Assembly: GCA_965243835.1 (NCBI GenBank)
Contig: OZ251578.1
Coordinates: 1,760,303-1,824,302 of the forward strand
Length of the DNA: 64,000 nt
Direction: 5' to 3'
Origin: Candidatus Spongiisociaceae bacterium
GTDB lineage: Bacteria > Actinomycetota > Acidimicrobiia > Spongiisociales > Spongiisociaceae
In this document: piece after piece, positions 3,939 through 63,121 of the stretch
Layout: every line of letters starts with the position of its first letter
How positions within the stretch are numbered: the stretch's first letter is position 1
Program-made: the position numbers and the translations under genes
The notes under the pieces: generated by a model
The model's input: the letters and a program-made list of their open reading frames with translations, nothing else
Databases searched by the model: none
Told to the model about the DNA's origin: nothing

Positions 3939-5801
3939 CTACTCCTCAAAAAATCTTATGGAAAAAGTTTTATCTGTGACAGGTTCCCTGGTAAAAATTT
4001 CTATTTCCCGGCGTTCGCCTGGTTCCGCATCGGGCAAGGAAAATAAATTGTCATCTACAACTTGCAGCGATTCGCCTCCTACGCTGGCTTTCCTAATACC
4101 CATAGGATACTTCGTCCCATCCTCACCCACCGACAACATTTCTATCTTGGTTGGAGTAGTTTCGGGTTGCTCAAAAGCAACAATAACCGAATGTGCATCA
4201 CTTGATCCTTTTCTAAAACGAACTCCCACAAAACTTTGGGGCGTGGCTGTGGCTTGCCGCTTTTCACCTTTCTTGCCCTTTTCCTGTCCCAGTCTATAAG
4301 TACTTGTGTCACCATTACCCGGAGTTTCAGTCGGTTGTTTATCCCGTTTTTTGGATTTTGTCTTTTTGGGTCTCCATGGTGCTCTAAGACTCTGAACAGG
4401 GTCTGTAACGATTGGATCGCCTTGGTTATCGGATTGATCCCGTCCTGTATCTTGGGATTCATCGCCCTCAATAGGAAGAAACTCCGCGAGCTCGTCGACG
4501 CTTTCTGAATCTGAGCCGGGATCGGGCTCTACAAAGTCCTTAATCACCTGATAACACCACCTGCCTATTTCATCAAACAACCCCTTGGCCTTTTTGCGCA
4601 ATTTTTCATCGCTAATATTGTCTATGCTTATTTGATCGTGCCTCGGAGATTCTGCCTGCCTCAACAGGGCTTCCCCTTTAGACTTGCATTCTATGATAGC
4701 GGTAAACCCCCACCAATGAGTAGGAAGCATAGCTAACTTAGGGAATATATATTTCCGGTCGGTTGTGATAAGCATACCAGCATCTCGCACTAATGCTATT
4801 TTCTTGTTACGAGTTTCCTTATCTACTTCAATACGAATTGATATTTCTCCTACATCATCCGCAGTAAAACGATCCACCGGTGCTTCTAAAGAAACTCGTA
4901 TATAATTCCGAACCATTTTATCTTGGATATCCTGTAAATAGTGCTTGTATGTCTTCACATTTATTTTACTATCGCCTACATTTACTTCCAATCCGCCATG
5001 TATAATGGCATGAAAATAATTACTCAGAACAATATCTATACCCCGTTTTTCCCATTCCTCTAACCCATCAGTAAAAGAATATCCAGGTATGTGGATAGCT
5101 GTACCAGGTTTCTTTAATTTTAGGTCAACGGGGACTTTATCGTTCTTAAGGGAATCGAATCTCTTCCCAAGATATCCAACCCTTTTGTATGGAGTACCGC
5201 TTTTGCCTTCGTGAGATACTAATATGGCCTTCCCCATAAAGCGTTGTCGAAGATGTCCGTTCTCCAAAAAGGCGGTGTTATACAATACTGTTCGTAAGGG
5301 AGTAGCAACAAAAGAGGCGAATTTTCCTATACCAAAAGAACCGGCGGCGTCTTTTTGCGGTTTGTTTGTCAGCCCCTCGCCCTTAGTAAGAGTTTCCCAA
5401 AATGTCGGTCGGTTATTATTCTTTATGTCCGTAGCGCCGGTTGTATTACTATCCGTTATACACAAGGATTCAATTGGGCTACCCCCCCCCCCCAATAAAC
5501 CCTTTGCTTTTTCAAAACCGGGGAGATATTTTTCTTCATTGTGGGGAGAATCTATCGCATACTGAATATGCCGCGCCAAACTATCTGTCGCCAACAAAAC
5601 GCCGTCTAACATCTTGTGCTGAAAATTGACTACCACGGGACCGGTGCCGTCCGGGGCTTCGGCATCCAAAGAGTTCTGAATAGCCTCCCTGATGATGGAC
5701 GTTTCGCGGTCGCCGGTAAAATGGGCCATGCCGGGATGGGCCGGCCCCTCGATAGCACCGGCCTGGTTCTCTTCGAACTTCCATTTGAGGTTTTGGCTCA
5801 T
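3939..5801 (-). CDS. GHKL-superfamily (histidine-kinase/MORC-like) ATPase domain protein, about 620 aa; first gene of the operon
   Basis: N box REAIQNSLDA and G box GSFGIGKFASF of Bergerat-fold ATPases. Start assigned to ATG at 5801 (MSQNLKWKF); an alternative start is at 5840. Contains an in-frame G12 tract. Confidence 0.65.
   Translation of the reverse strand: MSQNLKWKFEENQAGAIEGPAHPGMAHFTGDRETSIIREAIQNSLDAEAPDGTGPVVVNFQHKMLDGVLLATDSLARHIQYAIDSPHNEEKYLPGFEKAKGLLGGGGSPIESLCITDSNTTGATDIKNNNRPTFWETLTKGEGLTNKPQKDAAGSFGIGKFASFVATPLRTVLYNTAFLENGHLRQRFMGKAILVSHEGKSGTPYKRVGYLGKRFDSLKNDKVPVDLKLKKPGTAIHIPGYSFTDGLEEWEKRGIDIVLSNYFHAIIHGGLEVNVGDSKINVKTYKHYLQDIQDKMVRNYIRVSLEAPVDRFTADDVGEISIRIEVDKETRNKKIALVRDAGMLITTDRKYIFPKLAMLPTHWWGFTAIIECKSKGEALLRQAESPRHDQISIDNISDEKLRKKAKGLFDEIGRWCYQVIKDFVEPDPGSDSESVDELAEFLPIEGDESQDTGRDQSDNQGDPIVTDPVQSLRAPWRPKKTKSKKRDKQPTETPGNGDTSTYRLGQEKGKKGEKRQATATPQSFVGVRFRKGSSDAHSVIVAFEQPETTPTKIEMLSVGEDGTKYPMGIRKASVGGESLQVVDDNLFSLPDAEPGERREIEIFTREPVTDKTFSIRFFEE
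5482..5493 (-). repeat. homopolymeric tract, C12 on + strand = G12 in the coding strand of the GHKL ATPase gene (encodes GGGG; currently in frame)
   Basis: 12 consecutive C at 5482-5493 inside an otherwise AT-rich gene. Confidence 0.9.
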
Positions 5802-5866
5802 AGCGGGCCCTATATTACACTGGTCGGGCGGGGAAGGCAAATCCGCCGTCCCGCCGAGGAGGACTG

Positions 5867-6856
5867 ATGACCAAATTCGCTTATTTCTGCGGCCATGAGC
5901 AGTGGCACCCGGAGCAACTGGTGGAGCATGCGGTGCGGGCCGAGCAGGCCGGGTTCGACATGCTGGTGGTGTCGGAGCACTTTCACCCCTGGGTGGACGA
6001 CGCCTCGGCCTCCGGCTTCGCCTACGCCACCATCGCCGCCATGGCCCAGGCCACCGAGCGGGTGGAGTTCACCACCGGGGTGACCACCCCCCTGTGGCGA
6101 TTCCATCCCGCCTTGGTCGCCCAGGCGGCCGCCACCCTGGACCGGCTGAGCGGCGGACGGTTCCGCCTGGGAGTGGGCACCGGCGAGAACATCAACGAAG
6201 GTCCGCTCGGATACCGCTTCCCCAAGTATGCGGAACGGGCCGCCCGAATGGACGAGGCCCTGCAAATAATGCGGCGGATGCTGGATGGGGAGAAACTCAC
6301 CTTCGAGGGCGAATATTACGTAACCGACAGGGCCAAACTCTACTCCCCTCCCCTGTCCCGGGTGCCGATCCTGATGGCGGCGGGCGGCCCCAAGTCGGCC
6401 CGGCTGGCCGGTCGGCGGGCGGATGGGGTGATCGTGTCGGTGAAAGACCCGGCGGACGCCATGGAGCGGGTAATCGGCCCCGTCCGGGAGGAGGCCGCCG
6501 CCCACGGCCGCCCCGCCCCCACCGTGCTCACCTCCCGGTGGGCGATCCTGGCCGGAGACGATGACGAGGCGTGGCAAGCGTTGTTTTCCTGGCGTGGCCT
6601 GCGGGCCCCGGGACGTCTGGAGGCGGTGGATCCGATGACCCTGCGGGAGCGGGCCGACGAGTTGCCCCGCTCCGAGGTGCTGGGCCGCTACGCCCGCACC
6701 GCCAACGCCGCCGACATCATCGACGTCTACACGCCGCTACTCAAAGACATCGACGCCGATGTGATAACCATTCAGATGGCCGCCGTCGACCAGGAAGCCC
6801 TCATCGATCTGCTGGGCGCCGAAGTGCTGCCCGCCCTACGCGCCGCCGCCTCGTAA
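5867..6856 (+). CDS. LLM-class F420-dependent oxidoreductase (luciferase-like monooxygenase family)
   Basis: Luciferase-like TIM-barrel motifs (FDMLVVSEHF, RFRLGVGTGE) typical of F420-dependent G6PD-like LLM enzymes. Confidence 0.75.
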   Translation: MTKFAYFCGHEQWHPEQLVEHAVRAEQAGFDMLVVSEHFHPWVDDASASGFAYATIAAMAQATERVEFTTGVTTPLWRFHPALVAQAAATLDRLSGGRFRLGVGTGENINEGPLGYRFPKYAERAARMDEALQIMRRMLDGEKLTFEGEYYVTDRAKLYSPPLSRVPILMAAGGPKSARLAGRRADGVIVSVKDPADAMERVIGPVREEAAAHGRPAPTVLTSRWAILAGDDDEAWQALFSWRGLRAPGRLEAVDPMTLRERADELPRSEVLGRYARTANAADIIDVYTPLLKDIDADVITIQMAAVDQEALIDLLGAEVLPALRAAAS

Positions 6857-36781: not shown

Positions 36782-36801
36782 TACCGAACGTATGTTCGGG
36801 T
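36782..36801. promoter_or_regulatory. LexA SOS box (TACCGAACGTATGTTCGGGTA), 17 bp upstream of the radical-SAM gene
   Basis: Perfect CGAACGTATGTTCG palindrome matching the Gram-positive/actinobacterial LexA consensus GAAC-N4-GTTC; an identical core is upstream of recA at 54988-55001. Confidence 0.65.
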
Positions 36802-36814
36802 AGAATTGGGGGCT

Positions 36815-37831
36815 ATGAGCGAACTTCGTTGGAAAACCGCAGGACGGGGGGAAGACCCGCCCGCCTTGTTCGATATGGTGGTGGAGAGGCGCATCGGGCG
36901 GGGGGCCTACCGGGGTTTGGAGTTTCTGCATGTGGAGTCCAAAACCCTGATCAACCGGGTTCCCAACAACCGGATGTTCCCCTTTGAATACACCATCAAC
37001 GCCTACCGGGGGTGCAGTCACGCCTGCGTCTACTGCTTCGCCCGCCCCACCCACGACTATCTGGGGCTGGGCATCGGCGAAGATTTCGACACCCGGATCG
37101 TGGTGAAAATCAACGCCCCGGAACTGATCCGGCGGGAAACCGAACCCCGCCGCTGGCCGGGGCATCCCATCGCCATGGGCACCAACACCGACCCTTATCA
37201 GCCGGCGGAAGGCAAATACAAACTGACCCGGAGCATCGTGGAGGCGTTGGCGGAGCGGCGCAACCCGTTCACCATTTTGACCAAATCGCCGCTGGTGTTG
37301 CGGGACCTGGACCTGTTGCGGGAAGCGGCCGCCCGCGCTGAAGTGGGCGTCAACCTGTCCGTCCCCACTCTGGACCCGGAGGTGTGGGCCGCCTCCGAGC
37401 CGGGAACCGCCCATCCCCGCAAACGGCTGGACGCGGTGGCCCGTCTGAACGAGGCCGGGGTGCCCTCCGGGGTGCTGATGATGCCCATTTTGCCCGGCCT
37501 GTCCGACGGGCCGGAACAGATCGAGGAGGTGGTGGCCGGGGCGGCCGCGGCCGGAGCCCGCTTCATCGCCGGTTCCTACCTGCATCTGCGCGGCCCGCTG
37601 AAACGGCACTATTTGGACTGGGTGGGCGATGAGCGCCCGGATCTGCTGGCCCGCTACCAGCGTTTCTACCGCCGGGGGGCCTACGCCCCCGCCCCGGCCC
37701 GCAAACGACTGGGCGGCCTGGTAAACCGCATAATCGACAAACACTTCGGCCGCCGCCCCCGCCCGGCCGGGGCGTCCCCGACCGCCGCCCCCCTCCCGGC
37801 CTCCCCCGTCCAAACCCCCCTCCCCATCTAG
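36815..37831 (+). CDS. radical SAM protein of the SplB/Rv2578c-like (DNA-repair photolyase-like) family
   Basis: CSHACVYC (CxxxCxxC) cluster and family-typical blocks; start ATG 36815 (MSELRWK). An SOS box immediately upstream supports a DNA-damage role. Confidence 0.7.
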   Translation: MSELRWKTAGRGEDPPALFDMVVERRIGRGAYRGLEFLHVESKTLINRVPNNRMFPFEYTINAYRGCSHACVYCFARPTHDYLGLGIGEDFDTRIVVKINAPELIRRETEPRRWPGHPIAMGTNTDPYQPAEGKYKLTRSIVEALAERRNPFTILTKSPLVLRDLDLLREAAARAEVGVNLSVPTLDPEVWAASEPGTAHPRKRLDAVARLNEAGVPSGVLMMPILPGLSDGPEQIEEVVAGAAAAGARFIAGSYLHLRGPLKRHYLDWVGDERPDLLARYQRFYRRGAYAPAPARKRLGGLVNRIIDKHFGRRPRPAGASPTAAPLPASPVQTPLPI

Positions 37832-45260: not shown

Positions 45261-46331
45261 ATGAAACTACAAACCTGCAACTCCCCGGCCCCGCTCGGCG
45301 ACGACGGCCCCTCCGCGACGGGTTCCAGCGCCCGCGCCGAATATTCGCTGCACCGGGGCGACGTATTGGACGTCTATCAGGACTGGCCCCGCCCGGATGC
45401 GATAATTTCGGACGGAGCCTACGGCTTGGGGGGCTTCCCCGGCGACCCGCCCTCCGCCGCCCGGTTGCCCGAATGGTACGCTCCGCATGCGCAAGCCTGG
45501 TCCAAATACGCCCTGCCGTCCACCGCCTTGTGGTTCTGGAACACGGAACAGGGTTGGGCGTCGTGCCATCCCCTGCTCATGGAATTGGGATGGGTCTACG
45601 AGCAAACCATCGTCTGGGATAAAGGCCTGGGCCATGCGGCCGGCAACTCCAACGGCCAAACCCTGCGCCGGTTCCCGGTGGTGACGGAGGTGTGCGTGCT
45701 CTATTCCCGCAAACTGGAGTTTCCGACCGGACGGGCAATGCTGACCGCGCAGGAATGGTTGCGACATGAGTGGCGACGTTCCGGTCTGCCGCTCAACTCG
45801 GCCAACGAAGCGTGCGGGGTGCGCAACGCCGCCGCCCGCAAATACCTGACCTCGGATCGACACTGGTATTTCCCGCCGGCCGGGATGATGGAACGAATGG
45901 CGCGCTACGCCAACCAACGCGGCCGTCCGACCAGCCGCCCCTACTTCTCCATCGACGGCGAGCGGCCGGTCACGGCCGCGGACTGGCGGAAGCTGCGATA
46001 CAAATGGAACTTTGAACACGGCGTCACCAACGTTTGGAATCACCCTCCGGTAAACGGCAAAGAGAGGTACCGGGGCTCCGGTTCAGGTTCCGCGCCCCAT
46101 GGCCGTAATCCGGGACCCAACTCCGCCGCCCATCTCAACCAAAAACCCTTGGCCCTAATGAGGCGGATTGTCAAAGCCTGCACCGACCGCGCCGATGTCG
46201 TGTGGGAACCTTTCGGCGGCTTGTGCACCGGTGCGGCGGCCGCCCTGGAGTTGGGTCGCCGGGCGTACGCGGCGGAAACGGTGACGTTCTTCGCCGACAT
46301 AGCCCAAGAACGCCTAGCGCAAGCGGCTTAA
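45261..46331 (+). CDS. beta-class DNA methyltransferase (N6-adenine/N4-cytosine family) with atypical motif IV
   Basis: C-terminal motif I NQKPLALMRRIV...VVWEPFGGLCTG; order IV-then-I typical of the beta class. The catalytic tetrapeptide position reads SDGAY rather than DPPY. GC-rich (native composition). Confidence 0.65.
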   Translation: MKLQTCNSPAPLGDDGPSATGSSARAEYSLHRGDVLDVYQDWPRPDAIISDGAYGLGGFPGDPPSAARLPEWYAPHAQAWSKYALPSTALWFWNTEQGWASCHPLLMELGWVYEQTIVWDKGLGHAAGNSNGQTLRRFPVVTEVCVLYSRKLEFPTGRAMLTAQEWLRHEWRRSGLPLNSANEACGVRNAAARKYLTSDRHWYFPPAGMMERMARYANQRGRPTSRPYFSIDGERPVTAADWRKLRYKWNFEHGVTNVWNHPPVNGKERYRGSGSGSAPHGRNPGPNSAAHLNQKPLALMRRIVKACTDRADVVWEPFGGLCTGAAAALELGRRAYAAETVTFFADIAQERLAQAA

Positions 46332-50261: not shown

Positions 50262-50747
50262 TCAGCTCCCCTCTCCGTCGCCTGCGGCGGCTTGGGCTTG
50301 CCCGGCGGCCTGGATGGCCGACACGATGTTCAAATATCCGGTGCACCGGCAGATGTTGCCGGAAATGGCCCAGCGCACCTCGTCGTCGGAGGGGCTGGGG
50401 TTTTCTTCCAGAAGGGACGCTCCGACCAGCATCATCCCCGGGGTGCAGAAACCGCACTGCAACCCGTGGTGGGACTTGAACGCCTCCTGGACGGGATGCA
50501 GTTCCCCGTTCTGCTTCAGGCCTTCCACGGTGGTTACTTCCCGTCCGTCGGCCTGCACCGCGAACATCGTGCAGGACTTCACCGGGCGGCCGTCGAGCAG
50601 AACCGTGCACGCTCCGCAGGAAGTGGTGTCGCATCCGATGTGGGTTCCGCGCAACTCCAAGTCGGAGCGGATGAAATCCACCAGGAGCCGCCGGGGCTCC
50701 ACCTCCCGGGTTTCCCCGGAGCCGTTGATCGTTACCGTAACCTGCAT
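50262..50747 (-). CDS. coxS: CO dehydrogenase small subunit, (2Fe-2S)-binding
   Basis: Two [2Fe-2S] motifs (CDTTSCGACTV; CGFCTPG ... CRCTGY); start MQVTVTING overlapping the coxM stop (ATGA). Confidence 0.85.
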   Translation of the reverse strand: MQVTVTINGSGETREVEPRRLLVDFIRSDLELRGTHIGCDTTSCGACTVLLDGRPVKSCTMFAVQADGREVTTVEGLKQNGELHPVQEAFKSHHGLQCGFCTPGMMLVGASLLEENPSPSDDEVRWAISGNICRCTGYLNIVSAIQAAGQAQAAAGDGEGS

Positions 50748-51622
50748 CAGCTCTCCCCTCTTGCTTGGGCGAGGGCGGAGGCGAACCCCCGCCGGGTGTA
50801 TTCGGCGACCACCGCCCGCTTGTATTCGGCGGGACCGCGGACATCGCCGTCCGGGTCGCAGGAGCGGGCGGCGATTTGCGCCGCTTCCGCAAACAGTTCG
50901 GGCCCGGGTCGCTGACCGGCCATCATCTGTTCGGCGGCGGTCACTTTCAGGTTGTGCGGATAAACCGAAGTGAGGGCCAATCCCGCTTCGGCCACCCGGC
51001 CGGACTCGTCCAATTGGAGGTGGGTCGCCACCCCCACCGTGGCGTAATCGCCGATTTTGCGCTCCAGTTTCAGGTAGGCGCCGCCGGCCGCCCCCCGGTA
51101 GCGGGGGATGCGGACTTCCGTAACCATCTCCCCCGGCTCCAAGGCGTTGGTGAACGGGCCGACTATGAAATCCGCGGCCGGGATGGTCCGTTCGCCTGCG
51201 GCGGAGCGGACGGCCACCGCAGCCCCCACCGCCAGCATCACCGAGTTCCAATCCCCCTCCGGATCGCAGTGGGCCACCGAACCGCACAGGGTTCCCCGGT
51301 TGCGCACCAGCGGATCGGAAATCCAGGGAGCGGCGGCGGCCATGGTGCGATTGGCGCGTTTCACCAAGTCGGAGGCGGCCACGTCCGCGTGCCGGGCCAA
51401 GGCTCCGACCGCCAGATGCCCGTTGGACTCCCGGATGTAGTCCAGCCCGGTCAGGTTGTTGATGTCAACCAGGTAGCCGGGAGAGGCCAGCCGCAGTTTC
51501 ATCATCGGAATCAGGCTCTGCCCTCCGGCGAGAACCCGTCCTCCGCCCCCCGCCTCCCCCAAAGCGGACAACGCCTCGCCCAGGGTGGCGGGAGCCGAAT
51601 ACTCAAAAGCGGATGGATACAC
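50747..51622 (-). CDS. coxM: CO dehydrogenase medium subunit, FAD-binding
   Basis: FAD-binding CoxM blocks (AGGQSLIPMMKLR, AHCDPEGD). GTG start at 51622 preceded by AAGGAGG at 8-nt spacing; MSL gene order typical of form I. Confidence 0.75.
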   Translation of the reverse strand: MYPSAFEYSAPATLGEALSALGEAGGGGRVLAGGQSLIPMMKLRLASPGYLVDINNLTGLDYIRESNGHLAVGALARHADVAASDLVKRANRTMAAAAPWISDPLVRNRGTLCGSVAHCDPEGDWNSVMLAVGAAVAVRSAAGERTIPAADFIVGPFTNALEPGEMVTEVRIPRYRGAAGGAYLKLERKIGDYATVGVATHLQLDESGRVAEAGLALTSVYPHNLKVTAAEQMMAGQRPGPELFAEAAQIAARSCDPDGDVRGPAEYKRAVVAEYTRRGFASALAQARGES

Positions 51623-52098
51623 GACCCGCACCTCCTTGGTTTCGCTCTTGCCTTTCCCCTTGTATAGCAGGTTTCCCGGCCGCGCGCCGGAAAAGCGCGG
51701 GAATTTTTGCCCGGCGCCGCGGATAGGCGCCGGAAGTCGCAGAACCGGGGGCGGACGACGGGAGCGGGCGTTCGCGAACCGGGGGAAACAGGAGTTGTTT
51801 TGCCTCGCAAAATTCGTATATTGAATTTTACAGGCGTAAAAATATCTAAAACAGCGGCGTTGCCATGACCGATCAACACCCGCAACCGTCGCCCGGGGAC
51901 GCCGCCGTATAGCGGACCTTTTGGGAACGCGCCCGCTGGACGGGTCGACAACCCGTGGGCGCAGGCCGTGTGCGCCGGCCAAGACGTTGGCAACAGTTTT
52001 GCTTAGGTGAAGACTAGGAATATCCGGTCTTTGAGAAGATTTAGCCAGCCTCTGACCAAGGCGCCCCGCTTCCCTAGCTTGGCAACCATTTATAGCGC

Positions 52099-52839
52099 CT
52101 ACCGCGAGCGCGGCATTTCGTTGTATGTCTCACCGTGCAGTATGCGGCCGCCGGATTTGGGGGTGCGGCCGCCCCATTGTTTGAAGAAAAAAGGGATCCG
52201 GGAATCGGCGCATTGTTCGCGTAGGTCGATCGCCCATTCGGGTTGCATTGGACGGGCTCCCGGGCCGCTTTCGCCGCCCACTATCATCCAATGCACTCCG
52301 CTCAAATCCAGGTTCGGCAGGGGTCCGAGCAAGGGTTCGGCGCTTACGAACCTGATGGCAGCGTCCACCTCGCGCAGATGGTCGATCCTGAACTTGTAGC
52401 GGGCGGTTTCCACGCTTACCCCCATCCACAGGTTGGGCGGCCACTCCAGCGCTTGTCCGAAGCGGGCCAGTCGGCGGGAACGTTTAGTGAGCAACTGGTA
52501 CTGGTGCCGGGGAGTGTCGGCGATCACATCAAACACGCGGCGAATGAACTCGTCGGGCACATCCTTGTGGAACAAGTCGCTCATCGAGTCCACGAAAATG
52601 GTGCGCGGCTTGCGCCAAGAGCGGGGAATATCCAAGGCCTTGGGATGCAAGGTCATCCCGAAACCCGGCCCGCTGGTGCGAGGGTCGCCGTCCCGGCGAT
52701 ACTTCTCCACTCCCATCGCCTGCAACCGCTTCGCCAACGTGAGCGCGTAGCAGTTGTCGCACCCCGGCGAAGTGCGATCGCACCCGGTGGTCGGATTCCA
52801 GGTGGCCCCGGTCCACTCGATCGCGGTCTTGTCAGACAT
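52099..52839 (-). CDS. phage Gp37/Gp68 family protein (DUF5131, three-Cys motif)
   Basis: N-terminal AIEWTGATWNPTTGCDRTSPGCDNCYA pattern characteristic of PF07505-type proteins (recalled from memory). Confidence 0.6.
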   Translation of the reverse strand: MSDKTAIEWTGATWNPTTGCDRTSPGCDNCYALTLAKRLQAMGVEKYRRDGDPRTSGPGFGMTLHPKALDIPRSWRKPRTIFVDSMSDLFHKDVPDEFIRRVFDVIADTPRHQYQLLTKRSRRLARFGQALEWPPNLWMGVSVETARYKFRIDHLREVDAAIRFVSAEPLLGPLPNLDLSGVHWMIVGGESGPGARPMQPEWAIDLREQCADSRIPFFFKQWGGRTPKSGGRILHGETYNEMPRSR

Positions 52840-52842
52840 CGG

Positions 52843-53565
52843 CTATTCCTCCTCGTTTCCGCGGCGAGCGCCCTCTGTCCGCCGGTTGTCCCGGGCCGGC
52901 GAATGTTCGCCGTCGGCTTCCAAACCCCACGCGTGCCATCCGTCAGCGCGGCGTCGGGCGAACAGCTCGATTTTCTTCGATTCGGGAAACATCCGCTCGA
53001 TGCGCTTGCGCACCTCCGCCGGTTTCTCCGAATGCGGACCCCGTTTGGCGCTCAGGAACTGCCGTACGTTGCGCGCCCCGCGCGGGTGCGGTATTTTGCC
53101 GCGCTTGAAAACCAGGCACAGCTCGCACTGGCTCATCGTGTAGAAGCCGGGGTTGACCCGCACCTTGTCCCACACGAAAGCGACCGTCGCCCATGCGAAG
53201 CCCCACGATTTGCCCAAATCAATGGCCTGATCCAGGTGAGGGTTGGTGGCCCACATAAACAGCAGGCAGTCGTCGGCCGCTATGTCGGGCACGGACAGAT
53301 CCTTCAGGTGGTCGAGAGTAACGGTCGGGTAATGCCGCATCGCCCCGCCCGTATCCCGGCTCCCCGCCCCGGCGTGCTGCAACTGCCCCTTGTAGTCCCA
53401 AGGCGGGTCGGCGTAGATGATGTCAAACCGGCCTTGCGGCAGTTCGGGGAAGTCGCCGGAAACTCCGTTCCAGAGATGGTCGAACGCGGCGCGCGTCAAC
53501 CGCCCGGGCTCCGCTTCCGCCGACGGACGAGCCAAATTTCCCGTTACGGCCATCTTGCTCCTCAC
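52843..53565 (-). CDS. MT-A70-family N6-adenine methyltransferase
   Basis: Catalytic motif IIYADPPWDY (DPPW), MT-A70-type fold order; 4-nt gap to the DUF5131 gene. Confidence 0.7.
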   Translation of the reverse strand: MRSKMAVTGNLARPSAEAEPGRLTRAAFDHLWNGVSGDFPELPQGRFDIIYADPPWDYKGQLQHAGAGSRDTGGAMRHYPTVTLDHLKDLSVPDIAADDCLLFMWATNPHLDQAIDLGKSWGFAWATVAFVWDKVRVNPGFYTMSQCELCLVFKRGKIPHPRGARNVRQFLSAKRGPHSEKPAEVRKRIERMFPESKKIELFARRRADGWHAWGLEADGEHSPARDNRRTEGARRGNEEE

Positions 53566-53642
53566 CTCTTCCGTCCGGAGCGTCCGGGGCGAATCCGAAA
53601 CGCCCCGGACGGAATCAGTGTATCGGGCAATCCGCTAACCGG

Positions 53643-54686
53643 TCAGGCGGTGGCGGGTTGGGGGGTTTCCGCCCCGGCCGGCGCCTCGGAATCGGGTTCC
53701 GGCGGGGGGTTGACCGCGGCCAGCACCATGTCCTGGAGTTGCACGGCCACCTCCGGGTTCTCCCGCAGGAAAGCCTTGGCCTTCTCCCGTCCCTGGCCCA
53801 GCTGATCCCCGTCGAACGTGTACCAGGCCCCGCTCTTTTTCACGATGCCCTCGTCCACCGCCACGTCCAGCAGGCTCCCCTCCCGGGAGATGCCCTTGCC
53901 GAACATAATGTCGAACTCGGCCGTCCGGAATGGGGGTGCCACCTTGTTCTTCACCACCCGGGCACGCACCCGGTTGCCGATCTGCACGCCGCCGTCCTTG
54001 ATGGCCTCGATGCGGCGCACGTCGATCCGCACGCTGGAATAGAACTTGAGGGCGCGACCGCCGGGCGTCACCTCCGGCGACCCGTACACCACCCCGATCT
54101 TCTCCCGCAGTTGGTTGATGAAGATGGCGGTGGTGGACGACCGGTTGATCCCGGCCGTCAACTTGCGCAGGGCCTGCGACATCAGCCGGGCCTGCAAGCC
54201 GACATGGGTATCCCCCATCTCCCCTTCGATCTCGGCCCGGGGCACCAGGGCGGCCACCGAATCCACCACCACCACGTCCAGGGCGTTGGAACGCACCAGG
54301 ATGTCGGCGATTTCCAGGGCCTGCTCCCCGGTGTCGGGCTGGGACAGCAACAGTTCGTCGGTGTTCACCCCCAGCGCCTGCGCGTACACCGGGTCCAGGG
54401 CGTGTTCGGCGTCCACGAAGGCGGCTTGCCCGCCGTTGCGTTGCGCCTCGGCCACCACATGCAGGGCGAGGGTCGTCTTGCCGCTGGACTCCGGGCCGTA
54501 CATCTCCACCACCCGTCCCCGGGGCACCCCCCCGATCCCCAGGGCGATGTCCAGAGCCAGGGCCCCGGTGGGGATGTGCTCGATCCGCAGGTGGGTCCCC
54601 TCGCCCAGCCGCATGATGGCCCCCTTGCCGAACTGCCGTTCGATCTGGGTCATGGCCGTGTCAAGGGCCTGATTTTTTTGCTTCAT
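53643..54686 (-). CDS. recA: recombinase RecA
   Basis: Canonical RecA sequence (GPESSGKTT Walker [14 protein letters not shown]1/L2 loops); start at MKQKNQ (54686). Confidence 0.95.
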
Positions 54687-54983
54687 TGCCTTTGCTCCTT
54701 CGTGCGTTGTCGATTGCGCCTTGCGCTTTCCTCCGCCCGGTGCCGGACCGGCCCCGGTCGGCGCGCGTCGCCTGTGGAGCACTAAGGTACGGACTGCCTG
54801 TGACAAAAACGCGGGCGGGGCCGTTTCCGACCCGTTCTTCGCTTTCCTCCTTGCCTTCTCTCCGCCCGTCGGCAGGTCGCACCCGCCTTAAATTACACGA
54901 ATGTTTTTCAACATCGGGGCAATTCGTCCTTGCGCCCCCGCAGGGATGCAAAGTCCAATATGCCTCATTTCCGCGGCGAATAC

Positions 54984-55005
54984 TACCCGAACGTATGTTC
55001 GGTAG
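54984..55005. promoter_or_regulatory. LexA SOS box (TACCCGAACGTATGTTCGGTAG) in the thpR-recA intergenic region, about 300 nt upstream of the recA start
   Basis: Same CGAACGTATGTTCG palindrome as at 36785-36798. Confidence 0.6.
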
Positions 55006-55112
55006 CAAGTATTTGGATTCCGGGCGGCGAACAGGGACGGCGGCGGGCGGAGGGGCAATCGCCGAAACCCTTGCCGGACAAGGAAAAACGAACGGCGGGC
55101 AGTGCCGGGGAT

Positions 55113-55739
55113 TTAGAGCGGAAAGGTTTCCAGCCTCTGGTAGCGGGCCGGTTTTCCGCCCAGGAAACTGCGGTACAGCGCCACCTCGGTCACCGCTATT
55201 TTCACTCCTAAGCGGGCGGAGGAGGAGCCGGCCGGATCGTCCCGGCCGCCAGCCCCCGCCGGACGCAGGTCCACGGGCGGGCGGAAGCGGGCCAGGGTGA
55301 GATGGGGATGGAAGGGACGCTCCTCCGGGGGGAGGCCGGCCGACCGCGCCGCCTCCTCCGCCGCCGTCGCCAAGCGCGCCAGGCCGTCCCGTCCGCGGGC
55401 CACTCCCAGCCAGGCCGTCGTCGCCCGGGACGGTTTCGGGAAAGCCCCCAACCCGCCCCACCGCATGTTAAAAGGAGCGGGGGTTTCGGCCCGGTCCAGG
55501 GCGGCGTCCAAGGCGGCGCACAGCCGTTCCAGAACCGGCCGCTCCACCTCCCCCGCGAACCGCAAAGTCAGGTGAAAGTTGCCGACCGGAACCGGGCGGG
55601 CCCGCCCCCGGCCGCCGTCGCCGGATGCGGAGGATTCCCCGGCCGGCAAACGGAGTTCCGAGCGCCACCGGTCGACGGCCAACTGCGTTTCATGGGGAAT
55701 AGGGACGGCGGCGAACACCCGAAACCGGGTTTCACCCAT
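55113..55739 (-). CDS. thpR: RNA 2',3'-cyclic phosphodiesterase (2H phosphoesterase, ThpR/LigT)
   Basis: Two H-x-T-x motifs (HLTLRF, HPHLTLAR). Confidence 0.8.
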   Translation of the reverse strand: MGETRFRVFAAVPIPHETQLAVDRWRSELRLPAGESSASGDGGRGRARPVPVGNFHLTLRFAGEVERPVLERLCAALDAALDRAETPAPFNMRWGGLGAFPKPSRATTAWLGVARGRDGLARLATAAEEAARSAGLPPEERPFHPHLTLARFRPPVDLRPAGAGGRDDPAGSSSARLGVKIAVTEVALYRSFLGGKPARYQRLETFPL

Positions 55740-58960: not shown

Positions 58961-60019
58961 TTATATCTCGGGGAAAAAGTAGCGGCGGATGACGTCCAAG
59001 CGGTCGTCGAAGCCGTCGGGGTGCAGATACCAGAGGGTGGCGGCCAAGGTGGACAGCATCGGGTTGCCGTCCTGGGGGGTGAAGCAGAATCCGACCACCC
59101 GCCTGCCTTCCCGCACGGTCAGGGTTTCCACCGGCACCACCGTCTGGCTGAGGATGCGCCCGTAGTAGCCGTGGTCGCGCCCGAAGGAGAAGATGCGTCC
59201 GGCGGAGCGTTTGTAGGTGAGGGCCACCCGGGGGTTGGCGGTCAGCCTGCTCACCGCCTGCTCGACGGTGATGTCGTGGTCCAGGCGAATGTCGAAGTGG
59301 AGGGTGTGCATGTATTGGCTGTTGATTTTGAGGGCGGAGGAGAACAGGTTCAGGTCGTGGCCCAGGGTTTGGAAAAGGTGATGGGCGTCGCGGGCGTGAT
59401 GGGTGCCGAACCGGTCCTGCTTGTGGGTTTCCACGGTGGGGCCGGGCACGAACCCGCCGTCCTGGCTGATGTCGTTGGCCCGCCGGATGCACAAGAAGGA
59501 ACCGTTGACGACGCGGGAGCCTCCGTCCGGGTCGAAGCCGAGGGTTTTGAGAAGGACGGCGATGTTGTGGGTGTTGCAGGACACGATGTGGATGAAGCGG
59601 TCCCGACGGCGCTCCAAGGCCTGGTCGTTGATGCCCCGGGCGTACATCTTCCCGAACCCGAATTCGGAACCCTGGGCGAGAAAGCCGAGCACGCCGGGGG
59701 CGTTCCCGTAGTGCAGTTCCTTGTTTTCGTTGCCGGAGGGGGTGCAGTCGATGACCACCGAGGCCCGCTCCAGGGCTTCCCGGGTTTCATACCGGGCGCG
59801 GTGGCCCAGCTCCGCGAATCCGGCCCAGCGGTCGGCGTCCACCGCCAGGCGCGCCCCCCGCCGCACCAGGTCGTTGACCTTGCCCCGCTCGTCCCGGAGC
59901 GGCGTGCGCTTGTGAAAGGTCACCTCGTCGATCCCGAACGTCCGCTGATGATCCGCCAAGAGCCCGATCAACGGCTCCCCGATCGTCCCGGTCCCGATAA
60001 CGTGAACAATATTTGCCAT
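58961..60019 (-). CDS. type II (archaeal-type) glyceraldehyde-3-phosphate dehydrogenase family protein
   Basis: NAD-binding GTGTIG, catalytic region IVSCNTHN resembling the type II GAPDH SCNTT motif. Confidence 0.5.
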   Translation of the reverse strand: MANIVHVIGTGTIGEPLIGLLADHQRTFGIDEVTFHKRTPLRDERGKVNDLVRRGARLAVDADRWAGFAELGHRARYETREALERASVVIDCTPSGNENKELHYGNAPGVLGFLAQGSEFGFGKMYARGINDQALERRRDRFIHIVSCNTHNIAVLLKTLGFDPDGGSRVVNGSFLCIRRANDISQDGGFVPGPTVETHKQDRFGTHHARDAHHLFQTLGHDLNLFSSALKINSQYMHTLHFDIRLDHDITVEQAVSRLTANPRVALTYKRSAGRIFSFGRDHGYYGRILSQTVVPVETLTVREGRRVVGFCFTPQDGNPMLSTLAATLWYLHPDGFDDRLDVIRRYFFPEI

Positions 60020-60088
60020 GGCCCCAATCTACCCTTTGGCGGGACCGCGCCGTCGGAAAACGTCACTTGGCCCCGCTACAATGGCCGT

Positions 60089-60367
60089 ATGAACCGTGCA
60101 ACCGATGCCAAACCGATGACGGTAGGCGACCTGGTGCGGGAACTGTCCCGCTACCCGGACGACCTGCGCGTAATGGTGAGCGGCTACGAGGACGGCTTCG
60201 ACGACTTGGAGCCCGGCCTGCTCTCCGTGCGGGACGTAGCCCTCGATCGACACCCGGAGTGGTTCTACGGCCGACACGACACCCCCCTCCCGGAAGACGC
60301 GGAGGACGTCGCGACCGTGCCCGCCCTTCTCATCCACCGCCCCAACAAAACAGACGACCTGCCATGA
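60089..60367 (+). CDS. small hypothetical protein (92 aa) translationally coupled to the downstream AAA_21 ATPase
   Basis: ATG at 60089; stop TGA overlaps next ATG (ATGA at 60364-60367). Confidence 0.45.
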   Translation: MNRATDAKPMTVGDLVRELSRYPDDLRVMVSGYEDGFDDLEPGLLSVRDVALDRHPEWFYGRHDTPLPEDAEDVATVPALLIHRPNKTDDLP

Positions 60368-61551
60368 CCTTCCTCCGCAAGGTCCGTCTGGAAAACCTGC
60401 TTTCCTTCGGCCCCGCCGGCCAGGAACTGGATCTGGGCCCGCTGAACGTGCTGATCGGCCGCAACGGCTCCGGCAAATCCAACCTGCCCGCCGCCCTGGG
60501 CATATTGGCCGCCGCCCCGCGCAACCTGCCGACGCCCATCCGCGCCGCAGGGGGAACGAGCGAATGGCTTTGGAAAGGGGCCGACCAGCCGCCCGTTGCG
60601 ACCGTGGAGGCGACGGTTGAGTACCCGGAGGGCGCTTCCCCCCTCATATATCGACTTTCTTTCACCGCCAAAGGGCACCGGTTCACTTTGGTAGACGAAG
60701 CCATCGAAAACGCCAACCCGTCCTCCGGCGAAAGCTCGCCTTCCTTCTATTATCGTTATCAGGGAGGCCAACCGATTTTGAACGTAAGAACCGAAGAAGG
60801 GTTTTGGCGGGAAAAAACCGTTGACCCTGAATATATGAACAGCGAAACCTCGGTCCTTCGCAATTATATAGACCCCTTACATTACCCGCAAATAACATAT
60901 CTAGGTGAACGGTTTCCAAAAATACTCATATACCCACAGTGGAGCTTTAGTCATTACTCGCCGCCTCGTCAACCCGCCTCAACTGACTCGCTTCCCTATG
61001 TATTGCTAGATGATGCTTCGAACCTCGCTTTGGTGATGAACAACTTGCTTAATAAGCCTACAATTCGAAGGGAAATACTTGAGAAAGTCAGGAATTTTGA
61101 TCCTGACATTGAAGACATTGTAACCAATGTCGATGGTCGCAGTGTACAGATATATACTCATGAAAAAGGTTTAAACCATCCAATATCGGCTATGCATTTT
61201 GGGGATGGGCTCCTCCAATACTTATGCCTGTTGGCTGTCCTTTATAAACCTGAATCTCCGCCTCTTATCTGTCTTTCCGAACCGGAATCCAACCTGCACC
61301 CAGATATAATACCGGATGTAGCAAAACTTCTGTTAGAGGCTTCCTCACGAAGCCAAATTATCATAACCACTCAATCCGATATTATGGTAGATGCCCTAAC
61401 GGAAACACCCGAATCCATAGTGGTATGTGAAAAATACGATAACTGCACCCAACTACATCGCCTGAGTAGAGAACAGTTGCAACCTTGGCTAGATGAATAC
61501 AGACTAGGTGATTTGTGGATATCCGGTCAAATAGGCGGCAACCGATGGTGA
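60364..61551 (+). CDS. ABC-type AAA_21-family ATPase (abortive-infection/defense-type ATPase, about 395 aa)
   Basis: Walker [10 protein letters not shown], signature-like [15 protein letters not shown], Walker [14 protein letters not shown]; AT-rich 3' two-thirds. Confidence 0.7.
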
Positions 61552-63121
61552 CCACCGGAAAGGAAACAGCAGTTCAAGGGGCTACGACTGGGTATGAGGC
61601 TGAGCTGTGGAAGATGGCGGACAGTCTGCGGGGGAGCATGGACGCCGCCGAGTACAAGCATGTGGTGTTGGGGCTGATCTTTCTCAAGTATGTTTCGGAC
61701 GCGTTCGAGGAACTACACGAACATCTGCAGGGAGTACCCGACGCCGACCCGGAGGACCCGGAGGAATACGTCGCCGAGAGTGTGTTCTGGGTGCCGAGCG
61801 AAGCGCGGTGGGGGCTCTTGCAAGCCGAGGCCAAGCAACCCGACATCGGGCAACTGGTAGATGAAGCGATGGACGCCATCGAACGGGACAACCCCGCCCT
61901 CAAGGATGTGTTGCCCAAAGAGTACGCCCGGCCCGCTTTGGACAAAACACGACTCGGCCAGCTGATTGACCTAATCAGCAACGTCAAAGTGGGCGACGCG
62001 GAGTCGCGTTCCAAGGATGTGCTGGGACGGGTCTACGAATATTTTCTGGCGCAGTTCGCCGGGGCGGAAGGCAAACGGGGCGGCGAGTTCTACACTCCGC
62101 GGTGCGTGGTGAAACTGCTGGTGGAAATGCTGGAACCCTACAACGGCCGAGTGTACGACCCGTGTTGTGGCTCATCGGGAATGTTCGTGCAGTCCATGGA
62201 GTTCATCCGCTCGCACGCCACCGGCAACGGGAACGGCGGCCTGGCGGGCGACATTTCCATCTTCGGTCAAGAGTCCAACTACACAACTTGGCGGATGGCG
62301 AAGATGAACCTGGCCATCCGGGGCATCAACGGCCAGATCGAAATCGGCGACACTTTCCACGATGACCGCCACCCCGACCTGAAAGCCGACTTCATCCTGG
62401 CCAACCCCCCGTTCAACATTTCCGACTGGGGCGGCGAACGACTGACCGACGATCAACGCTGGAAATACGGCATCCCACCCAAAAGCAACGCCAACTTCGC
62501 TTGGATGCAACACATAGTCCATCACTTGTCTCCGGGGGGGGGGGTGGGATCGTGCTTGCCAACGGGTCAATGTCGTCCCAGCAGTCCAACGAAGGCGAGA
62601 TACGCAAAAATCTGCTAGAGGCCGATTTGGTGGACTGTATGGTGGCCCTGCCTGGCCAGCTGTTCTACTCCACCCAGATCCCCGCCTGCCTCTGGTTCCT
62701 GTCCCGCAACCGAGGTAACGGACCGTTTCGAGACCGCCGCGGCGAGGTGCTTTTCATAGACGCCCGCCGAATGGGCGTAATGCGAGACCGCACCCATCGC
62801 GAACTTACCAATGATGAGATAAGTCGCATCACCAACACCTACCATGCCTGGCGCGGCGAGACAGACGCAGACGAATTTGCCAATATCCCAGGCTTCTGCT
62901 ATAGTGTACCCATAGAGGAGTTACGCAAACACGATTACGTGTTAACTCCTAGTCGCTACGTAGGAGTGGAGCCTGAAGAGGAGGAGGACGAGCCTTTCGA
63001 AGAAAAAATGACCCGACTAATCAGGCAATGGAATTATCAAACAAGCAAGGCCTTAGATACTAACAAGAAAATCACCAATAACTTAAAAAAGGTAGGATTT
63101 ACCACTGTAAGGGAACTCTAA
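61545..63121 (+). pseudogene. hsdM: type I restriction-modification methyltransferase subunit HsdM, split by a frameshift at a G11 homopolymer (phase-variable or disrupted)
   Basis: Upstream frame carries the HsdM N-domain ([26 protein letters not shown]) and catalytic NPPF. Downstream frame carries [11 protein letters not shown]...[14 protein letters not shown]. The frames switch inside GGGGGGGGGGG at 62534-62544. Confidence 0.8.
62534..62544 (+). repeat. G11 homopolymeric tract inside hsdM (currently out of frame; G12 or G9 would restore the ORF)
   Basis: Direct count of 11 G; reading-frame analysis of the flanking HsdM motifs. Confidence 0.9.

Follow-up and report, generated by a model that had tools for sequence, protein, structure and literature searches.

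Two adjoining genes lie directly downstream of recA in a 64-kb stretch of DNA from a Candidatus Spongiisociaceae bacterium (contig OZ251578.1, positions 1,760,303 to 1,824,302; hereafter the window). One encodes an MT-A70-type adenine methyltransferase and the other a member of the DUF5131 (Gp37/Gp68) family. Do these genes form a recurrent pair with a shared function, as a first-pass annotation of the sequence had proposed? We favor a different reading, to which we give a probability of roughly 0.7: the locus is a truncated three-gene island in which an orphan methyltransferase of the M.MunI family stands beside a DUF5131-TcmP cassette that has lost TcmP, and the two are separable things. The reading builds on what we observed in family assignments, in gene order and its truncation, in the missing general linkage between MT-A70 and DUF5131, and in purifying selection on both genes. 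The features discussed below are listed here in window coordinates.

52033..52089, minus strand: degenerate remnant of about 57 nucleotides (nt) from the 5' end of a lost TcmP gene, frame broken (alignment to relative L172)
52099..52839, minus strand: DUF5131 (Gp37/Gp68) protein of 246 amino acids (aa) with the cysteines C20-x6-C27-x2-C30 (PF07505, E 4.6e-97)
52843..53553, minus strand: MT-A70 (DPPW) adenine methyltransferase of 236 aa (PF05063, E 1.6e-21)
53569..53614, minus strand: GC-rich stem-loop in the spacer between recA and MT-A70 (RNA fold; stem kept in relatives)
53643..54686, minus strand: recA (RecA Pfam model, E 5e-138)
54988..55001, minus strand: LexA (SOS) box-like palindrome CGAACATACGTTCG, about 300 nt upstream of recA (sequence match)

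A three-gene island between recA and rny

The two genes were confirmed as intact, tightly spaced open reading frames (ORFs) on the minus strand beside recA, as first annotated. The list of ORFs places DUF5131 at 52099-52839 and MT-A70 at 52843-53565, with a GTG start at 53565. We reset the MT-A70 start to the ATG at 53553 on the basis of an alignment to four relatives and of where a GGAG-type ribosome-binding site lies. Its TAG stop codon (52845-52843) is separated from the DUF5131 ATG (52839-52837) by 3 nt (4 by coordinate difference), and its final codons, GAGGAGGAA, form the DUF5131 ribosome-binding site. Relatives show an 8-nt overlap of the two genes, and every contig of the lineage has one of these two spacings. 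The genes share the strand of recA, whose stop codon lies 89 nt upstream of the MT-A70 ATG.

The close relatives of the window are metagenome contigs of uncultured Acidimicrobiia with 80-97% nucleotide identity. Gene order in these relatives is GAPDH-like gene, rimO, cinA, ligT, recA, MT-A70, DUF5131, TcmP, rny, miaB, miaA, dapF, and the stretch from recA through TcmP to rny was found in L001, L082, L083, L172, L258 and L259. The TcmP proteins encoded there are 333-344 aa long and match TIGR04474 at E 2.5e-48. RecA is at least 91% identical to that of the window within the lineage (100% in contigs L172-L175) and at most 83% identical in other Acidimicrobiia. Because the genome of Ca. Spongiisocius (L176; 82% RecA identity) shares the upstream synteny but has unrelated genes after recA, we conclude from comparative gene order that MT-A70, DUF5131 and TcmP are a three-gene accessory island. 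This bears out the earlier view of an accessory module in a core recA region, since Ca. Spongiisocius, the lineage examined that comes next in RecA similarity, lacks these genes.

In the window, the third gene is gone. Relative L172 has TcmP, an identical RecA protein and 93% nucleotide identity to the window, and blastn colinearity with it ends at window position 52047. What the window retains (52033-52089) is the start ATG of TcmP with about 55 nt of homology, degenerate and broken in frame. Unrelated sequence then runs into a cox operon, and neither tblastn nor hidden Markov model (HMM) searches found TcmP elsewhere in the 64 kb. The junction between DUF5131 and the cox genes is not an assembly artifact, because the independent contig L173 has it (97.5% identity over 11.4 kb). 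Judged from these alignments, the window locus is a truncated island, in which a rearrangement cut TcmP down to a stump of about 57 nt and brought the cox operon up against it.

About 475 nt of lower-GC non-coding DNA (51623-52098, minus strand) separate the stop codon of DUF5131 from the probable start of coxM, a GTG at about 51623. An AT-rich stretch within it may be the cox promoter region, and the listed long ORFs 50747-51982 and 51511-51993 look over-extended or spurious.

The MT-A70 protein and its relatives

The match of the MT-A70 protein to PF05063 spans the full model (1-172 of 172; 77.4 bits against a gathering threshold of 23.9), and the catalytic motif YADPPWDY is invariant in 40 homologues. 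The protein also matches PADLOC MTase_II PDLC03262 (E 2.9e-60) and phrog_359, "DNA methyltransferase" (E 4.5e-63). Homologues are widespread and highly conserved. We surveyed the neighborhoods of 80 metagenome loci that carry homologues at 63-80% identity. At five of them (L096, L102, L112, L115 and L120; homologues 66-80% identical), an endonuclease gene is immediately adjacent, and its product was identified as MunI-like by the Pfam family RestrictionMunI and a match to PDB entry 1D02 (E 2e-18). At many other loci the homologue is surrounded by phage replication genes (dUTPase, PD-(D/E)XK, RNase H-like, Pol A, gp32, RusA), and some loci lie in defense islands. MT-A70-type enzymes of bacteria had been described as mostly phage- or defense-linked, and the relatives do sit in phage, restriction-modification or defense-island contexts. 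DUF5131 and TcmP were absent from all 80 loci.

Because its homologues adjoin MunI-type endonucleases or sit among phage replication genes, the protein is best read as an orphan M.MunI-family DNA methylase that forms N6-methyladenine (m6A). With the methyltransferases of M.MunI-type type II restriction-modification systems, the bacterial MT-A70 clade, it shares the Pfam family, the DPPW motif, the small single-domain size and the 66-80% identical homologues next to MunI-like endonucleases. It differs in that no MunI-like endonuclease is encoded in the 64-kb window (tblastn gave no match better than E 0.28), hence the term orphan. The MT-A70 family as a whole is held to derive from bacterial M.MunI-like DNA m6A methyltransferases (PMC7145601). 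The MunI site, CAATTG, occurs 7 times in the whole window against 15 +/- 4.2 expected from shuffles, a borderline or mild depletion (3 of 100 shuffles had fewer than 7).

The first-pass annotation had held that its proposed pair would be undermined if the methylase proved to be a restriction-modification enzyme with a cognate endonuclease and had no recurrent linkage to DUF5131. This applies in part: close homologues adjoin MunI-type endonucleases, and they show no general linkage to DUF5131. Its suggestion that the MT-A70 protein might itself be TcmP proved wrong: the protein had no NCBIfam match at E <= 0.01, hhalign gave a probability of 2% for the TcmP and MT-A70 profiles, and a genuine TcmP gene was found downstream of DUF5131 in close relatives.

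DUF5131 and its habitual partner TcmP

The DUF5131 protein matches PF07505 from end to end (model positions 1-243 of 243; 324.7 bits, cut-off 28.9), and also PADLOC PDC-M41B (E 1.2e-107) and PDC-M30B (E 1.3e-103). This Pfam match, like those of the MT-A70 and RecA proteins, is well outside what chance would give. The family is very large and unusually conserved: a word-indexed search returned 8000 matches, of which each of the best 120 reached 70% identity or more in BLAST local alignments. The cysteine triad C20, C27, C30 (C-x6-C-x2-C) is invariant in 85 homologues and present in the window protein, which keeps all 55 columns that are invariant across this set. DUF5131 genes occur in 180 cultured phage genomes, and the earlier description of a phage-rich family with a cysteine triad holds on both counts.

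We examined DUF5131 neighborhoods at 80 loci (+/-10 kb) in species-representative genomes from many phyla, with 50-70% identity to the window protein, and at 80 viral loci from IMG/VR, 160 loci outside the lineage altogether. One neighbor family adjoins DUF5131 in 51 of the 80 genome loci by clustering and in at least 67 by HMM. It is TcmP, TIGR04474 (seven of seven tested proteins matched, E 1e-32 to 3e-64), which corresponds to PADLOC PDC-M41A/PDC-M30A; the statement in the first-pass annotation that DUF5131 has a catalogued habitual partner was thus sound. TcmP also adjoins DUF5131 in 36 of the 80 IMG/VR loci, and in Gordonia phage Angelique the two genes (TcmP annotated as "methyltransferase") lie between the integrase and the immunity repressor. 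The cassette is found in many phyla and has more than 600 matches in IMG/VR. Twelve genome loci (about 15%) have DUF5131 without TcmP, as do phage TChen and a Mesorhizobium phage. On one short contig (L010:646-1374), which has no TcmP, the DUF5131 homologue contains an in-frame stop and is likely a pseudogene.

None of the 80 genome loci has MT-A70 or recA within 10 kb of DUF5131 (tblastn and HMM searches), and none of the 80 viral loci has MT-A70. Together with the 80 metagenome loci of the MT-A70 survey, these results rule out a general MT-A70/DUF5131 gene pair, and the proposal of a recurrent pair falls (0 of 160 DUF5131 loci outside the lineage, 0 of 80 MT-A70 loci). The idea of a pair holds only inside the lineage, in which both genes are consistently intact and coupled in translation and TcmP decays. 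The remaining neighbors of the cassette at the genome loci are heterogeneous (224 clusters among 248 proteins), which excludes a recurrent third gene or any DNA methylase as a standing companion, and only about 10 of 117 cassette neighbors carry restriction-modification or defense domains.

The DUF5131-TcmP cassette is already catalogued, in TIGRFAMs and as the PADLOC candidate defense systems PDC-M30/M41, and its function is uncharacterized. The window DUF5131 is a full-length, high-scoring member of these systems, and close relatives hold the complete cassette in the same position. The window differs in lacking the A component, TcmP, and the lineage differs in adding an upstream-coupled MT-A70 that is absent from the 160 other loci.

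A TcmP profile built from 47 sequences matches chains of the m6A ribosomal RNA (rRNA) methylase RlmJ in the PDB at E of about 1e-5 (9e-6). The aligned region covers S-adenosylmethionine (SAM) motif I (DxFAGxG) and the motif of the catalytic loop, where TcmP has DP(Y/F)G and RlmJ has DPPY. RlmJ, the 23S rRNA m6A2030 methyltransferase, is the nearest solved relative of TcmP, alike in SAM motif I and in an equivalent of the DPPY motif. TcmP differs from it in the DP(Y/F)G sequence, in a variable C-terminal half and in traveling with DUF5131. Its members are about 19% identical on average.

For DUF5131, several lines point toward the radical SAM enzymes. The family is entered in SFLD/RadicalSAM.org as one of the radical SAM subgroups, and spore photoproduct lyase and MJ0683-like proteins share its megacluster (PMC9477430). 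The window protein gives a match to TIGR04471 ("radical SAM mobile pair protein A") at E 1.6e-22, which falls short of the model cut-off. In an AlphaFold (AF2) model with a mean predicted local distance difference test score (pLDDT) of 64.9, core residues 70-225 form a confident beta/alpha barrel and residues 1-65, the cysteine-motif region, have pLDDT below 50. The top Foldseek match of this medium-quality model, a weak one, is lipoyl synthase 5exj (probability 0.99, E 9e-3, TM 0.39). Aligned by hhalign with a canonical radical SAM protein encoded in the window itself, DUF5131 scored a probability of 4.6%, which is not significant; the cysteine motifs and an LTK(R/S) strand line up. DUF5131 resembles radical SAM enzymes (spore photoproduct lyase/MJ0683-like proteins, TIGR04471) in its SFLD listing and its TIGR04471 match, and perhaps in its predicted barrel core, and differs from them in cysteine spacing, in the lack of a PF04055 match and in having no solved structure.

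Repeated loss of TcmP and selection on the island

Within the lineage, TcmP has been inactivated three separate times: by a rearrangement that deleted it (window and L173), by a frameshift (L084 and L085) and by cassette replacement (L257). In L257, most of the gene was swapped for about 680 nt of unrelated, lower-GC DNA with a 103-aa ORF (L257:7563-8245), and the breakpoints are some 15 nt inside the start of TcmP and about 133 nt short of its end. L257 and L259 have identical RecA proteins, and the TcmP of L259 is intact. The breakpoint in the window also lies just inside the 5' end of TcmP, and the DUF5131/TcmP boundary may be prone to recombination. MT-A70 and DUF5131 are both intact in 11 of 11 lineage contigs.

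We next estimated the ratio of non-synonymous to synonymous substitution rates (dN/dS). Between the window and its relatives, it is 0.07-0.09 for DUF5131, 0.06-0.11 for recA and 0.16-0.23 for MT-A70; for TcmP, it is 0.37 (L001 versus L082). By these estimates, MT-A70 and DUF5131 are under purifying selection, and the constraint on DUF5131 is about as strong as that on recA. Between the window and L173, neither of which has TcmP, DUF5131 differs by 4 synonymous changes and 1 non-synonymous change. The TcmP genes of L172 and L259 share 64% nucleotide identity over 464 alignable nt, with flanks at 80-85%. The TcmP losses, the selection estimates and the divergence between L172 and L259 argue that DUF5131 is not a toxin neutralized by TcmP. 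On the same evidence, DUF5131 appears to keep a TcmP-independent function, and TcmP is an RlmJ-like, fast-evolving, exchangeable module that is probably the specificity component of the cassette.

Hairpin and SOS box around recA

Folding of the RNA of 53550-53650 gave -51.6 kcal/mol (z = -4.4), and none of 200 shuffles folded as well. The stem in the spacer is kept in L001, L082 and L084 with two compensatory changes. The hairpin at 53569-53614 lacks a U-tail and may serve recA as a terminator or attenuator. Upstream of recA, the palindrome CGAACATACGTTCG contains at 54989-55000 an exact match to GAACnnnnGTTC, a LexA box consensus of Gram-positive and actinobacterial type. A sigma-70 promoter scan of 51400-55300 returned nothing, and in a high-GC actinobacterium such a scan carries no information.

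A second exact copy of the SOS-box core, GAACGTATGTTC, lies at 36786-36797, just upstream of the window's canonical radical SAM gene (about 36815-37831, plus strand; PF04055 E 2e-16, motif GCSHACVYCFA). By this arrangement, the gene looks like a LexA-controlled "DNA repair photolyase" of the SplB/MJ0683-like type. In contigs L260 and L261, recA (RecA at 5001-6035) encodes a protein 93% identical to that of the window and stands in another context (dnaK, grpE, dnaJ, hspR, hipBA, recA, DUF3151). L261 and L082 derive from one metagenome sample. These contigs would represent either another organism, in which recA has moved, or an additional copy of recA.

Competing explanations

If the island consists of two separable things, the MT-A70 enzyme would most likely use SAM to methylate adenine in a short CAATTG-type DNA palindrome, and would do so without a cognate endonuclease. 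DUF5131 would be the strongly conserved catalytic part of the cassette, a barrel like that of the radical SAM superfamily whose C-x6-C-x2-C triad would hold a [4Fe-4S] cluster. It would thus be an iron-sulfur, SAM-dependent enzyme that acts on nucleic acid and is normally targeted by TcmP, an RlmJ-like Rossmann-fold methyltransferase (DxFAGxG, DP(Y/F)G) predicted to bind the target nucleic acid. After the loss of TcmP, the solo DUF5131 of the window would either act alone or be idle. These enzymatic activities, the sequence that is methylated and any part played in defense are our inference.

Several observations weigh against this reading or parts of it. As a sign of the predicted MT-A70 target, CAATTG is only mildly depleted. 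For the proposed chemistry of DUF5131, PF04055 gave no match at E <= 0.01, the spacing C-x6-C-x2-C is not the canonical C-x3-C-x2-C of radical SAM enzymes, and PDB searches, run both with one sequence and with a profile of 85 sequences, found no relative by sequence. The radical SAM assignment is accordingly weak (Foldseek E 9e-3, TM 0.39, cysteine region pLDDT <50). The literature on DUF5131, PF07505, TcmP, Gp37/Gp68 and PDC-M30/M41 yielded catalogue-type mentions and no biochemical or genetic study, so that the functions of DUF5131 and TcmP are assigned by homology alone. Finally, translational coupling of MT-A70 to DUF5131 is seen in each of the 11 lineage contigs that have both genes readable, and the two genes have stayed intact despite three losses of TcmP, which could mean that they work together in this lineage and are not separable.

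That last point is the core of an alternative in which MT-A70 has functionally displaced the RlmJ-like TcmP as partner of DUF5131, and the pair is the selected unit, for example in a two-step modification of nucleic acid or a modification-dependent activity. Such displacement would account for the 8-nt overlap or 3-nt spacing in every lineage contig and for the survival of both genes in 11 of 11 contigs through three independent inactivations of TcmP. It would also fit the 4 synonymous changes against 1 non-synonymous change in DUF5131 between two genomes without TcmP, and both TcmP and MT-A70 are predicted to be N6-adenine-type amino-methyltransferases. However, MT-A70 and DUF5131 co-occur at none of the 160 DUF5131 and none of the 80 MT-A70 loci elsewhere, and DUF5131 is retained without either partner in 12 of 80 genomes and in phages. 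Moreover, three losses in the longest of three genes are weakly non-random (about 0.07 if losses are spread by gene length), and the TcmP and MT-A70 families are unrelated at the profile level. We consider displacement, the main alternative, unlikely. The fuller version, in which MT-A70 was captured into the DUF5131 operon in place of a repeatedly lost TcmP to give a new modification or defense module that could be expressed by SOS-controlled read-through from recA, strikes us as a doubtful proposition. If true, it would amount to a new two-enzyme nucleic-acid modification or defense module that combines an N6-adenine methylase with a radical-SAM-like enzyme.

Read-through from recA also figures in a DNA repair explanation, by which DUF5131 would be a spore-photoproduct-lyase-like radical SAM enzyme recruited to the recA operon and induced in the SOS response. 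The megacluster that RadicalSAM.org assigns to DUF5131 includes spore photoproduct lyase and MJ0683-like proteins, one phage record labels a DUF5131 homologue "spore photoproduct lyase", and a LexA-box-like palindrome lies upstream of recA. The genes are on the recA strand, 89 nt downstream, and no promoter-like site was found. By contrast, recA is near DUF5131 in none of 80 other genomic loci, the habitual partner of DUF5131 is a methyltransferase-like protein and not a repair factor, and the family is common in phage and mobile contexts. A conserved, strong hairpin separates recA from MT-A70, and a canonical radical SAM gene with an SOS box in front of it already exists elsewhere in the window; a repair role is very improbable on this balance. 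A similarly poor case can be made for the MT-A70 protein as an m6A methyltransferase of RNA, for example rRNA, that needs an accessory subunit. The precedent is M.EcoPA8orf6770P, a prophage MT-A70 enzyme that methylates 16S rRNA and requires the product of a neighboring gene, PNB-2 (PMC10810198). Like the window protein, it is a bacterial or phage MT-A70 enzyme with an adjoining small partner gene on mobile DNA, and the PDB sequence matches of the window protein are, bar one marginal match, eukaryotic MT-A70 family entries (ciliate MT-A70 family proteins, METTL3). It differs in its 16S rRNA target, in a partner unrelated to DUF5131 and in being a much more distant relative. Homologues in cultured phages, Stx phages included, are less than 42% identical to the window protein, and the far closer ones (66-80%) are the M subunits of MunI-type restriction-modification pairs, which makes an RNA methylase the least credible of these explanations.

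Other defense and methylase genes in the window

An AAA_21/AbiEii-like (OLD/ABC-type) ATPase gene lies at 60013-61551 (plus strand) beside the conserved 352-aa GAPDH-like gene. GC content drops to 0.42 at about 60750-61500, and the DNA is apparently foreign. At the same spot, relatives carry hsdM (L001, L084) or an AAA_21 ATPase (L173, L258, L259). Because relatives carry different genes there, the spot looks like a defense hotspot. The window also has a type I hsdM (HsdM_N plus N6_Mtase) that shares about 72% nucleotide identity with its L001 counterpart and is broken into two overlapping ORFs (61515-62618 and 62501-63121, plus strand), probably by a frameshift or as a pseudogene. After the xdhC/cox cluster comes a second orphan DNA methylase (45261-46331, plus strand; N6_N4_Mtase, 356 aa), whose C-terminal part is weakly similar to CcrM, and no endonuclease was identified near it.

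Implications

The locus combines known kinds of genes in a lineage-specific neighborhood from which the defining partner of DUF5131 has been deleted, and it is not a new general gene pair. By itself, it adds little: a MunI-type orphan methylase and a catalogued cassette that is incomplete here. The lineage, in turn, is a natural experiment on the widespread and uncharacterized DUF5131-TcmP cassette, as it offers strains with identical RecA in which TcmP is intact, frameshifted, replaced or deleted.

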